DNA from: Dictyostelium discoideum
Lineage: Eukaryota
Length of the DNA stretch: 64,000 nucleotides
Assembly: GCA_000004695.1 (NCBI GenBank)
Contig: CM000151.3
Span: 1,024,001 to 1,088,000, forward strand
Direction of reading: 5' to 3'
Under the pieces are notes generated by a model. It saw only the letters and a program-made list of their open reading frames with translations. It was not told where the DNA came from and searched no databases. Made by a program: the position numbers and the translations under genes. Shown piece after piece: positions 56,160-63,954 of this stretch (the first letter of the stretch is position 1; each line of letters opens with the position of its first letter).

Positions 56160-56454
56160 TATTATTTATATGTAAAACAATATTGTTTGATTTGAAAAAG
56201 GTTTGAAAACAATTTAAAAAAAAAAAAAAAAAAATCAAAAAAAAATGAAATTTAAAAAAAAAAAAAATTAAAAAAAATAAAAAATGAAATTTAAAAAAAA
56301 AAAAAAAAAAATAATGATCAAAAAAAAAAAAAAAAAAAAATAATCAATTTACCATTCGTTCGGGTTCAATTAATTAATAAAAAAAAAAAAAATAATAAAA
56401 AAAAAATTTTATTATATATTTATTTTATTTTTTATTTTTTTTTATTTTTTTTTT

Positions 56455-60002: not shown

Positions 60003-60462
60003 ATGTCAATTATTTACTCTCCAGAAGTACCATTTCAATTATTTGAAGTTGAATTAAGAGATTTAGATGTAAATAGTGAAGAATTTAAGTTTGTTGCCCA
60101 AATTTTCAATGTTGGAGTTCCAAGTACTATTAAGAAAATTCAAGTTGTTTACAATAAAAGTGTTTGGAAAAATTATAATAAAAATTTGGGTAATTCATTA
60201 AAGGAAATTTTCGTGTTCCATGGTTCTAGACTAAATGAGCCAAAATTAATTTATACAAATGGTCTTCTAGTTGAAAAAACCAGTGCGGGTTTATACTTTG
60301 CTTAATCTTCAAGCTACATCACATGGATTTACTCATTCTAATGGTCATTGTAATCAAATTTTCATGTGTAGATTATTAGTTCCAATTGGTCAAGAATCAT
60401 CAAGTGTACATGTTATAAAGAATAATGATCATCATTATCCACAATATTTAATATCATATTAA
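60003..60462 (+). pseudogene. Minimal PARP-fold ADP-ribosyltransferase-like gene, copy 1, interrupted by a 1-bp frameshift at about 60300
   Basis: Frame 1 (60003..60305): MSIIYSPEVPFQLFEVELRDLDVNSEEFKFVAQIFNVGVPSTIKKIQVVYNKSVWKNYNKNLGNSLKEIFVFHGSRLNEPKLIYTNGLLVEKTSAGLYFA*. Frame 2 continues (60271..60462): ...LQATSHGFTHSNGHCNQIFMCRLLVPIGQESSSVHVIKNNDHHYPQYLISY*. Alignment to copy 2 shows a single-base deletion (gc-ttaatc versus gccattaaatc). It could alternatively be a sequencing error. Confidence 0.45.
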
Positions 60463-60663
60463 AAGACTTTTATTGTCTTTTATTATTTTTTAAAAAAAAA
60501 AAAAAAAAAAAGATAATAAAATAAAAAATAATAAAAAAAAAAAAAAAAAAAAGATTATTTTTTATTTTATCAAACCATTTAAAATCTTATTTTCTATTTT
60601 TTATTTTTCATATATTTTTTAGTTAGTTATATATTTTTTTTATTTTAATTTTAAACATTATTA

Positions 60664-60670
<7 letters not shown>

Positions 60671-60752
<82 letters not shown>

Positions 60753-60753
60753 T
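60671..60753. repeat. (ATT)n microsatellite between the two PARP-like copies
   Basis: Seen directly. Confidence 0.9.
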
Positions 60754-61002
60754 TATTTTTTTTTATTTTTTTTTTTCTAATATTAAATTAAGTTTTGAAC
60801 CTAATCTTTAAAATTAATAACCTTTTTTGTATATTTAATTTTTTTTTTTTTTTTTTTTTTTTTTTGTAAATTCTTTAACAAAGGTTTTTTTTTTTTTTTT
60901 TATTTATTTACTTTTTTTTTCAAATTAAATTATTAAATAAGAATGTCACCAATTGTATCAGATAATCTTTGGAAGTCGAAATAAGAGATTTGGATAGAGA
61001 AA

Positions 61003-61428
61003 GTGATGAATATAAATTTGTGGCAAATAACTTTTAAAAAAACAATGAATAGCTTTTTTGTTAAAAAAATACAAGTTGTTTATAATAAAAAGGTATGGGA
61101 TAATTATTATCAACATTGGTTAAAATCAAATCATTCACTTGAAGAACTTTTCGTGTTCCATGGTACATCATTAAATGATCCAAGCTTAATCTACACAAAT
61201 GGGCTAAGGGCGGAAAAAACTCAAAGTGGTTTATACTTTGCCATTAAATCAGAGTCAAATGGTTTCACTTATAAAAATACTGATTGTAGTCAAATTTTTA
61301 TATGTAGAATATTAATACCACGTCAGAATGTATCACCAAGATTTCATGTTATAAAAAACAATGATCATCATTACCCACAATATCTAATATCCTACAACTC
61401 CAAATATAGGAACTCAATTATGCTCTAA
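61003..61428 (+). CDS. Minimal PARP-fold ADP-ribosyltransferase-like gene, copy 2 (N-terminally degraded; ORF from an internal Met)
   Basis: 141-aa ORF: ...KKIQVVYNKKVWDNYYQHWLKSNHSLEELFVFHGTSLNDPSLIYTNGLRAEKTQSGLYFAIKSESNGFTYKNTDCSQIFICRILIPRQNVSPRFHVIKNNDHHYPQYLISY.... Contains H-G-[ST], G-L-Y-F-A and a terminal Y-P-Q-Y-L-I-S-Y, corresponding to the PARP H-Y-E triad with E replaced by Q. Upstream 60943..61002 is homologous to copy 1's N-terminus (ATGTCA...) but is out of frame and hits TAA. Confidence 0.5.
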   Translation: MMNINLWQITFKKTMNSFFVKKIQVVYNKKVWDNYYQHWLKSNHSLEELFVFHGTSLNDPSLIYTNGLRAEKTQSGLYFAIKSESNGFTYKNTDCSQIFICRILIPRQNVSPRFHVIKNNDHHYPQYLISYNSKYRNSIML

Positions 61429-62144
61429 ATTAAAATAAATAAAAAAATAAAATAAAGGATTATTAGAATTCTCCATGAAAAAAAAAAAAAAAAATTTCTT
61501 AATAATATTCTAAAAAAATTTAGTCCTCGTATAAATTTTTAAAAATAGTTATTTTTTTTTTTTTTTTCAAAACTCCAATGATATTATTATTTTTTTTTTT
61601 TTTAAGATATTAATTACACTGTGTAACTAATTCATTCACTTTGGTGTCTTTGAAAAGTATTTGGAATGAACTATTAATTTATATTGATATTAATTTTTAT
61701 TTTTTTTATTATTTCTCTAAACAATTTTTTATTTTTGTGATAGGGGTAAAAAAAAAAAAAAAAAATTTTTTTTCATGTTTTCATTTAGTGTGTGTGGTTT
61801 AAAAAATAAAAAAGGTTTGTCATCCAACTTTTTTTTTTTTTCTTTTTATTATTATTTTATTTATTATTATTAATTAAAACTATTATAATATTAAGTTCAT
61901 TACTAAATAAATTTTTTTTTATTTTATTTTTTTTTTTGTTTTTTTTAATTTTTTTTTTTTTTTTAAATGACCTAAACGAATTCAGTTTGACTTTTTGATG
62001 ATCAAGACTTTTTTTTTTTAATTTTTTTTTTATTTTTTTTTTTTAATTTTTCATTTTTTTTTTATTTTTAAAAAAAAAAAAGGTTTTTTTTTTTTTTTTT
62101 TTTATTTTTGTTACAACATTCATATTAAATAAAAGAAAAAAAAA

Positions 62145-63130
62145 ATGAATAAAATCTTATCAATACTTTTATTAAGTATTTTAATTTTATTTATCCTAAG
62201 AGTGGAATCATATCCAACATATGGTGGATCAAATTCAGCAAATATTAGAAGAGAGGACAGACATTCATTTAGAGCTCCATTCTTACAAAGTGGTACTGGT
62301 ATTTTATATTGGGATATCGAAGGTTCAACAATTGTAAATGATGATTTCATTCGTTTAACATCGGACCAAAAATCATTACATGGTGCAATTTGGAATACTG
62401 AACCAATGGAACAACCATGGTGGGAAGTTGTATTTGAATTTAGAGTACATGGTGCAGGTAGAATTGGTGCTGATGGTATCGCTCTTTGGTTAGTAGATAG
62501 AAAAGAAGGTAATTCTCAAGATTTCTCAATTTATGGTTCTAAAAATTTATGGAAAGGTTTGGCTATTATTTTTGATACTTTTGATAATGATCAAAATGTA
62601 AGTAAAAAAAAAAAATTAAAATAAAAAAATAAAAAAAAACCAACTAACCTTTTTTTTATTTTATTTATTTTTTCTATTTTTATTTTTATTTTTTTAGGGT
62701 GATCATCCATTAATTTCAGTATTTTATAATGATGGTACTAAATTTTATGAAACAGCAAAAGATGGTAGTAATATGAAATTAGGTAGTTGTTCATCAAGAT
62801 ATAGAAATGATAAACATAATGCCAAATCAAGAATTAGATATTATCATGGTTTATTGAGTGTTGAAATCGATCCAAATGGATCAGGTATTTTCGAGAAATG
62901 CGTTCAAGATGTTCGTCTTGATATTCCAACACGTTATACATTTGGTGTTTCAGCTGCCACTGGTGGTTTAACTGATAATCATGATGTTTACTCTTTTGAT
63001 ACCTTTAGTTTAGATGCTTCAGTTTCAAATCAAAATACAAATAATTATAATAATGTTCAATTTGAAAGAGAAAGATTAGAAAAACAAAGATTAGAATATG
63101 AATTACAACAAACTCAACAACAACAAACTC

Positions 63131-63165
<35 letters not shown>

Positions 63166-63954
63166 ACTCAACAACAAACCCAACAAAATAACCAAGATAA
63201 AGAATATCAAGAATTTTTACAATATAAAGCTCAACAACAACAACAAAATAACTATCAACAAACTCAAAATGATTTAATTGAAAAATTAAATGAAATTCAA
63301 CAAGAACAACAACAAACTCAACCACCACAACAACAACAACAACAAACTCAACCTCCACAACAAAAATTACAAGATGAAATTAAAAATTTATCAGAAAAAG
63401 AACAAATTGGATTTTTAGTTAAAAAGGTTGATTCATTAGTTGAAGCAATTCATTCATTACATGTAATTTTAGATGATCCAGATTATAAAAAGAGTTTTGA
63501 TGGTTTAAGAGATCAAGTTAATGTAATTAGTCAAGCATTAGTTTCATTATCACAAGGTTCACTTAAAGTTAAAGATTTTGAAAGTTTCCGTTCAACTTAT
63601 GATCAAAAGCAATCACAATTCATTAAAGACTTTTATGATTTCAAATCAACAATGCAAGATCTTAAAGCAACCATCAACAATAGATTCAATAATCAAGATA
63701 ATGACGTCACCAAATCAATTGAATCAGTTAATATGAATTTAAATTCTTTAAGAAAATTAGTTGAAGCTTCAACTAGAGATACTCAAAAAATCTCTTCCAT
63801 CTTAAATTCAAACGCTGATGAATTGGCAAACACAATTCAAAAACATAGTTCATTTGGTTTTTGGACTTACTTTTTATTCGTTCAAGCTATCTTTATCTTT
63901 GGTTTTGTTTTTTGGAGAAAATATAAAGATGATAATAATAAAAAATTAATTTAA
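62145..63954 (+). CDS. L-type (legume-like) lectin cargo receptor, ERGIC-53/VIP36-like, type I membrane protein, 2 exons
   Basis: Exon 1 62145..62597 (signal peptide; ...FDTFDNDQN|GTAAGT). Intron 62598..62697. Exon 2 62698..63954 (GDHPLISVFYNDG...). L-type lectin motifs (GADGIALWLVD; GLAIIFDTFDND). Long poly-Q coiled-coil stalk, one TM helix, C-terminal KKLI (KKxx-type ER retrieval). Confidence 0.85.

Follow-up and report, generated by a model that had tools for sequence, protein, structure and literature searches.

A tandem pair of compact PARP-domain genes in Dictyostelium discoideum, with one disabled copy and one lesion that is probably private to the assembly

Introduction

In the reference genome of Dictyostelium discoideum AX4, two neighboring genes encode a small domain resembling the catalytic domain from the family of poly(ADP-ribose) polymerases (PARPs), and neither gene can be read without interruption. 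Are these genes decaying duplicates, intact genes spoiled by sequence errors, or sources of shortened functional proteins? This question is addressed here for a stretch of 64,000 nucleotides (the window; GenBank assembly GCA_000004695.1, contig CM000151.3, positions 1,024,001 to 1,088,000), in which the + strand carries copy 1 (60003-60462), copy 2 (60943-61428) and all parts of them for which coordinates are given below. The answer favored here, and considered probable, is that the locus is a lineage-specific tandem pair of compact stand-alone PARP genes, of which copy 2 is truly disabled and copy 1 carries a lesion private to this assembly.

A preliminary description made from the letters of the stretch had reported two same-strand copies about 1 kb apart, and the spacing was measured to be 940 bp from start to start. 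The coding DNA of the two copies is about 70% identical, the motifs FVFHG[ST], GLYFA and HHYPQYLISY are common to both, and a conserved leader of about 25 bp stands upstream of each ATG. The search for further copies proposed in that description was run with tblastn across the window and found no third copy.

The family belongs to the PARP superfamily

The assignment of the domain to the PARP-fold ADP-ribosyltransferases (ARTs) was borne out by profile and structure searches of the kind that had been suggested as a check. Against the Pfam profile PF00644, which has a curated cut-off of 26.7 bits, intact orthologues scored 34.9 and 33.8 bits, and the window proteins after repair of their reading frames scored 27.6 (copy 1) and 27.2 bits (copy 2). 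A single-sequence search of the PDB returned PARP12, PARP15 and PARP14 with E-values of about 1e-6 to 5e-5, and a search with the family profile returned PARP12 (3e-12), PARP15 (4e-10), and TNKS2 and PARP14 (both about 3e-9). When the same profile was compared with 1.84 billion representative proteins, 1656 matches at E<=1e-3 were obtained, including 219 at E<=1e-10; the HGT and YFA motifs of PARPs were present in all seven proteins inspected (P0011-P0017) among the best sixteen matches. AlphaFold models of P0002, an intact orthologue of copy 2, and of P0008, an orthologue of copy 1, reached moderate confidence, with predicted template-modelling (pTM) scores of 0.65 and 0.60, respectively. Foldseek searches with these models ranked PARP12 first (E 3.8e-8, template-modelling score 0.66). 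Overall, the family belongs to the PARP/ARTD superfamily, with PARP12, 13, 15, 10 and 14 as its nearest members. The intact proteins comprise 151-163 amino acids (aa), which is small for the PARP family, in line with the unusually small ART described before.

Several of the profile matches have an architecture of their own. P0015, P0014 and P0011 (543, 709 and 1154 aa) contain two, three and five full PARP catalytic domains in head-to-tail order, respectively, and the repeats are nearly identical within P0011 and P0014. These three may be genuine multi-PARP proteins or fused gene models of tandem arrays.

Copy 2 is a disabled allele

Copy 2 retains its ancestral start at 60943, where an ATG and 13 codons lead to a premature TAA (60982-60984). 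The ancestral strand-1/helix-1 region follows out of frame at 60966-61034 (SLEVEIRDLDRESDEYKFVANNF); it is homologous to the N-terminus of copy 1, and its 23 codons between the two frameshifts were found by tblastn to be 86% identical to residues 14-35 of P0002. The remaining open frame extends from an internal Met at 61006 to the stop at 61426-61428 and corresponds exactly to the 140-aa protein XP_001134608.1 (EAS66924.1, Q1ZXP0); an alternative Met at 61045 gives a model of 127 aa. The preliminary description had thus correctly recognized the out-of-frame N-terminus, the early stop, the need for an internal Met and the untouched core motifs. Its single frameshift has to be replaced by four lesions, which become visible on comparison with L002 and L003: an in-frame loss of 12 bp after ATGTCA, a -1 deletion after 60963 (TATCAA to GAT-AA), a +1 insertion (TTT to TTTT at 61032-61035) that restores the frame, and the loss of the ancestral stop (TAA to TAT together with a 6-bp deletion), by which the C-terminus is extended. 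Here L002-L004 denote loci in other 'discoideum' or 'cf. discoideum' assemblies, L001 is contig JBTAPE010000001.1 of a D. discoideum long-read assembly, and L005-L007 are Logan contigs, from three short-read assemblies of different sequencing runs.

The last 8,968 bp of the window are 99.77% identical to L001, and no difference between the two was found anywhere in copy 2. The three Logan assemblies are likewise 100% identical to the window across copy 2, including both frameshift sites; their matches start at 60891 or 60914, and within 60891-61942 they differ from the window only in the T-runs at 61829 and 61937. Since the lesions are reproduced in the long-read assembly and in three short-read assemblies, they are genuine, and the homopolymer sequence errors proposed earlier do not account for them. 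An intron was also considered as the cause of the frame breaks in either copy and was rejected, because the ancestral peptide can still be read from the shifted segment of copy 2, the frame is not restored by removing any GT...AG interval of plausible length, and introns are absent from the orthologues.

Strand 1 and helix 1 (model residues 17-38) are missing from the truncated product of 127-140 aa, and the actual truncated products score 21.8 and 20.0 bits with PF00644, below the cut-off. Because of these two properties, copy 2 is read as a real disabled allele of this genome that annotation has kept as a protein; the truncated product has probably lost its function. Both the AX4 RefSeq model and a newer annotation start at the internal Met. 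Q1ZXP0 is annotated as 'poly polymerase, catalytic region domain-containing protein [Dictyostelium discoideum AX4]', and a literature search for Q1ZXP0, XP_001134608 and EAS66924 returned no paper.

The lesion of copy 1 is confined to 85 bp

The N-terminal frame of copy 1 (60003-60305) comprises 100 codons followed by TAA (60303-60305), and the C-terminal part continues in a shifted frame at 60313-60462 (ATSHGFTHSNGHCNQIFMCRLLVPIGQESSSVHVIKNNDHHYPQYLISY and a stop), where tblastn gives 100% identity to residues 104-152 of P0161, an intact orthologue. The domain is therefore split across two frames after GLYFA, as had been described. The cause is not the 1-bp deletion that had been named: compared with the intact orthologues, the disabling lesions are an AAA to TAA nonsense change at 60303 and a 1-bp insertion (an extra A at 60311), neither of which lies within a long homopolymer.

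With homopolymer runs excluded, the window and L001 differ at six positions in 8,968 bp, and four of these fall inside 85 bp of copy 1 (P = 5.35e-5 under uniform placement). These four, at 60227-60311, are private to the window and comprise T60227, which is synonymous, A60282, which changes Arg to Ser, and the two disabling lesions, T60303 and the extra A at 60311. Every other strain has the L001 state at each of these sites, and therefore the window holds the derived state. In the rest of copy 1 the window and the intact L001 gene do not differ, so any inactivation would be extremely recent. The cluster favors an error of the reference or a group of private mutations over long-term decay. Between these two, a local flaw of the reference sequence is judged somewhat likelier than a very recent, genuine cluster of mutations private to AX4.

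The record of the 100-aa product is sparse, an old UniParc entry (UPI00000028E7) being its only one. Exact-product look-ups in the Logan assemblies with the 100-aa, 63-aa and 32-aa open reading frames (ORFs) of the window and with the intact 152-aa protein found none of them, and a second homologue search with copy 1 recovered no read-assembly fragments. As a separate observation, copy 2 is found in the Logan assemblies of the three runs on contigs roughly 1 kb long whose ends are T-runs, with no copy 1 product matched. All insertions and deletions between the window and L001 other than the extra A at 60311 are length changes of long A/T runs in intergenic DNA, located at 56320, 60533, 60839, 61748, 62033, 62070 and 62084.

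Orthologues and evolution of the pair

Homologue searches returned only Dictyostelium proteins, from the D. discoideum complex, D. citrinum, D. dimigraforme and D. firmibasis. The gene order TUTase, copy 1, copy 2, L-type lectin recurs in three further assemblies labelled 'discoideum' or 'cf. discoideum'. A tandem pair occupies the syntenic site in D. dimigraforme and a single intact gene in D. citrinum; the one gene of D. firmibasis is located elsewhere. An intact copy 1 of 152-153 aa is present in L001, L002, L003 and L004, and an intact copy 2 in L002 and L003, where it encodes 163 and 161 aa, respectively. The copy 2-type gene of L004 is broken by extra bases that shift the frame at an A-run, and that of D. 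dimigraforme by an in-frame stop, both upstream of the conserved internal Met.

Both lesions are masked by predicted introns, in the gene models P0004 (134 aa; L004 6001-6494) and P0010 (145 aa; L011 5001-5483). A third intron-using model, P0005 (180 aa; L010 5001-5612), appears to append the remnant of a second copy by means of its intron. The introns predicted in these three models are annotation artefacts that conceal pseudogenes, the predictor having worked around the lesions.

For intact orthologues, pairwise ratios of nonsynonymous to synonymous divergence (dN/dS) were 0.41-0.70, with the exception of the closest pair, L002-L004 (1.29, on 3 synonymous changes), indicating weak purifying selection on a fast-evolving protein. 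Counted by branch, six nonsynonymous and two synonymous changes fall on the window branch of copy 2; both this branch and that of L002 are rich in nonsynonymous changes, and the changes are few. Across the eight intact proteins, 55 columns are invariant, including FHGT, GLYF, QxFMCR and HYPQYLISY, and these cluster in the motifs of the NAD pocket and in the last strand. Taken together, the sequences portray an apparent birth-and-death pattern, in which copy 2 of a fast-evolving family has been hit independently in several lineages.

An unusual divergence of the locus was also considered and rejected. The flanks of L002, L004 and L003 are only 84-91% identical to L001 as well; because flanks and genes have diverged to the same extent, the locus is not exceptionally polymorphic, and the strains represent deep lineages. 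As an aside, over the locus and its flanks the 'Dictyostelium discoideum' assemblies ACTFIW and ACTFIR share only about 88-91% identity with the AX4-type sequence, which suggests cryptic species-level divergence under one name.

Catalytic triad, NAD+ pocket and shortened domain

The signature motifs HG[ST], GLYFA and YPQYLISY reported earlier are present in both copies. The His and Tyr of copy 1 (60219-60221 in FVFHGS and 60294-60296 in GLYFA) lie in its N-terminal frame, and those of copy 2 are at 61159-61161 and 61234-61236. The third position of the triad requires more care. It had been described as Gln, giving an H-Y-Q triad in which Gln replaces the catalytic Glu, by equating Y-x-Q-Y-[LI]-[IV]-x-Y with Y-N-E-Y-I-V-Y of PARP1. 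Hidden Markov model (HMM) alignments to PARP12 and PARP15 rule out this equation. In these alignments, SSVHVIKNNDHHYPQYLISY pairs with DPSIFVIFEKHQVYPEYVIQY of PARP12 and with the corresponding segment of PARP15, and the Gln of YPQYLISY (61378-61380 in copy 2) falls in the last beta-strand, matching YPEYLITF of PARP12/15, so that its counterpart is the non-catalytic Glu of YPEY. At the third triad position, copy 1 has Val (60406-60408, in the shifted C-terminal part), copy 2 has Phe (61342-61344), and the rest of the family has V or I. PARP12 is H-Y-I and PARP15 is H-Y-L (PMC9189837), and in both the third residue, I or L, opens the xFV[IV]F strand. The catalytic Glu of the PARPs that form poly-ADP-ribose (H-Y-E) is not present at this position of the mini family in the alignment. 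Because the HMM register puts V or F on the Ile of PARP12 and the Leu of PARP15, the predicted triad of the family is H-Y-hydrophobic, as in mono-ARTs and in the inactive PARP13, and not H-Y-Q, copy 1 being H-Y-V and copy 2 H-Y-F.

The predicted nicotinamide pocket is otherwise complete. The H and G of HG[ST], the Tyr of GLYFA and the Ser at +8 are invariant in the eight intact proteins, and the residue at +11 from the GLYFA Tyr is Phe or Tyr, which aligns to the second stacking Tyr of PARP12 (HHY); the roles of these pocket residues are taken from PMC9189837. Compared with PARP12 (chain 140-171) and PARP15, about 27-30 residues, comprising the acceptor loop and the YDSxV strand, have no counterpart in the interval from the VLVG-type strand to the triad-3 strand, so that in these alignments the acceptor loop and the strand that precedes the triad-3 strand, which are expected of active mono-ART PARPs, are missing from the mini family. 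The D-loop is also about 7 residues shorter than in PARP12.

An intact family member would be expected to bind NAD+ in the canonical way. Because the catalytic Glu is absent, it would transfer at most single ADP-ribose units, by substrate-assisted chemistry like that of the H-Y-I/L PARPs (PMC9189837). Alternatively, for want of the acceptor loop, it could act as a binding or regulatory pseudoenzyme resembling PARP13.

How well do other explanations account for the locus?

The preliminary description preferred to read both copies as decaying pseudogenes, with the family being lost from D. discoideum. This is a minority view here, though one with substance: disabling lesions are present in both window copies, copy 2-type genes are broken in L004 and D. 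dimigraforme as well, D. citrinum apparently retains only one intact gene, and dN/dS between the copy 2 sequences of the window and L002 is about 1. Equal decay of both copies is not supported, given that L001, at 99.77% identity, and all further strains and species examined have an intact copy 1 (152 aa in L001), and that copy 1 of the window matches the L001 gene outside the 85-bp cluster. The NAD-pocket motifs are invariant, dN/dS is 0.41-0.70 in all but one orthologue pair, and the 100-aa product is missing from read-based assemblies that contain copy 2. The opposite explanation, that sequencing or assembly errors caused both disruptions and that both genes are ordinary intact paralogues, would suit a homopolymer-rich genome of 79% A+T, in which the remaining insertions and deletions between the window and L001 are homopolymer-length differences and the +1 insertion of copy 2 falls in a T3/T4 run adjoining an A7 run. 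For copy 2 it is refuted by the identical presence of all lesions in L001 and three Logan assemblies, and the AX4 RefSeq and newer annotations were both forced to the internal Met start; as an account of both copies it is very improbable. A third explanation holds that copy 2 expresses a functional, N-terminally truncated protein of 127-140 aa from an internal Met, serving as a smaller ART or a regulatory fragment. Its frame of 141 codons is open despite the A+T content, an in-frame Met at the TMNSF position is kept in the copy 2 orthologues, the lesions of three lineages (the window, L004 and D. dimigraforme) all lie upstream of this Met, and the catalytic-core motifs are untouched. Such a protein would nevertheless lack strand 1 and helix 1, which are present in every aligned PARP domain, and it stays under the Pfam threshold as given above. 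The six nonsynonymous and two synonymous changes on the window branch are compatible with neutrality, the lost stop and C-terminal extension suggest no constraint, and a dS of 0.06 is too little divergence for an open frame to be informative. This third explanation is accordingly considered doubtful.

Several points weigh against the preferred reading of a disabled copy 2 and an assembly-private lesion in copy 1. The copy 1 product, truncated or intact, is absent from the Logan assemblies, and an AX4-private mutation cluster is thus possible. The copy 2 dN/dS between the window and L002 (0.99) derives from just 21 changes, and the intact L002 branch shows an equally high ratio, for which reason it does not separate the alternatives. 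A frame of 127 codons is still open in copy 2, and its in-frame Met (TMNSF, RMRSF or SMRSF) is conserved in the orthologues. With respect to the fold, the mean predicted local distance difference test (pLDDT) score of the models is only about 63, with values <50 for the D-loop and the region after GLYFA; with respect to function, the family may be catalytically dead, as the acceptor loop and one strand are absent. A bolder proposal goes in the other direction: the intact alleles (151-163 aa) would be active and would then be the smallest mono-ADP-ribosyltransferases of the eukaryotic PARP family, the invariant short loop GL..EKT (P0002 positions 93-99) possibly taking over the acceptor or catalytic role, and the fast evolution, the tandem duplication and the recurring knock-outs of copy 2 in single strains would mark a polymorphic locus of the conflict or immunity type in social amoebae. 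Rapidly evolving clade-3 PARPs of vertebrates have been implicated in host-virus conflict (PMC4038475), and the combination of fast evolution, tandem duplication and recurrent loss may be likened to them; this likeness is an analogy and not evidence, and the proposal is a long shot. The reading given at the outset, of a truly disabled copy 2 beside a copy 1 whose lesion is private to this assembly, remains the preferred one.

Surroundings of the locus

The pair is flanked by genes for a TUTase and an L-type lectin, and the G+C content of the window is 21%. An (ATT)34 microsatellite (60657-60757) separates copy 1 from copy 2. The minus strand shows nothing notable, and a tRNA scan of the window found none. 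The downstream lectin gene (62145-63954, + strand) was identified from the Pfam match Lectin_leg-like of its L003 orthologue; it contains a short intron at about 62625-62772, a long poly-Gln or Gln-Thr tract and a C-terminal transmembrane segment. Two genes downstream of the pair, just past the end of the window, lies a Dictyostelium gene of 567-568 aa (L001 9935-11641) that is conserved in L002-L004 and L010. Its precomputed Pfam match is PF27114 (Phage_tail_beta), an unexpected label for a eukaryotic gene.

Implications

The locus does not overturn the current understanding of PARPs and is a modest, lineage-specific case of a gene family. Two database records deserve correction: Q1ZXP0, the 140-aa protein of the AX4 reference, is the open remnant of a frameshifted gene, and an intact copy 1 is probably missing from the AX4 protein set owing to four suspicious base calls. 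The H-Y-E register is easily misread, as clade-3 PARPs carry YP[EQ]Y one strand past the true catalytic position. A compact PARP domain that has an NAD+ pocket and lacks the acceptor loop offers a minimal scaffold for studying the contribution of this loop to mono-ART activity, and the polymorphism of intact and disrupted genes among Dictyostelium strains provides ready-made natural genetics.

What distinguishes the mini genes from known PARPs?

The mini genes are an uncharacterized compact addition to the known PARP family, to which Q1ZXP0 had already been annotated as a PARP-domain protein. By sequence profile and fold, they are closest to PARP12, 15, 14 and 10 (ARTD clade 3, the H-Y-I and H-Y-L mono-ARTs), with which they share the His-Gly, the Tyr, the Ser at +8, the aromatic residue at +11, a hydrophobic residue at the position of the catalytic Glu and the C-terminal strand YP[EQ]YLI[ST][FY]. 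In contrast to these relatives, the Dictyostelium proteins stand alone, without macro, WWE, zinc-finger, RRM or UIM domains; the acceptor-loop and strand residues are also missing from them, and they have the shortened D-loop described above.

The nearest full-size relatives are the dictyostelid PARP proteins P0016 and P0017 (31% identity, E 3e-19), which come from the same organism group and spell their motifs similarly (LFHGT, GLYFA, QMFLCR and AYPDYLISY). They differ in size (326-381 aa), in having a complete PARP domain (Pfam 64-69 bits) and in carrying C-terminal ubiquitin-interaction motifs (UIMs); compared with P0016, the mini genes have lost at least 17 residues of the acceptor region and all extensions. 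A 'relatively short' clade 3D Dictyostelium PARP, DDB0304590, has been described (Citarelli et al., 2010, PMC2964712) and may be compared with P0016 and P0017. The mini genes themselves are not mentioned in the main text of the PARP-family surveys PMC2964712, PMC4245714 and PMC1266365.

The C-terminal pseudo-PARP domain of PARP13/ZAP (Y-Y-V, inactive) resembles copy 1 in having Val at the third triad position, and PARP13/ZAP, TASOR and RCD1 provide precedent for PARP folds retained as non-catalytic modules. The Dictyostelium family differs from PARP13 in keeping the NAD-binding His, which is absent from PARP13 (PMC9189837), and because this residue is retained, an open NAD+ site is plausible in the family. 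Small size is shared with P0141 (158 aa), P0086 (170 aa) and P0033 (214 aa), which likewise have a short link between the LCRV-type strand and the triad-3 strand, with different loop sequences. Since these proteins are similarly shortened, the compact architecture of the Dictyostelium pair is unusual among PARPs, not unique.

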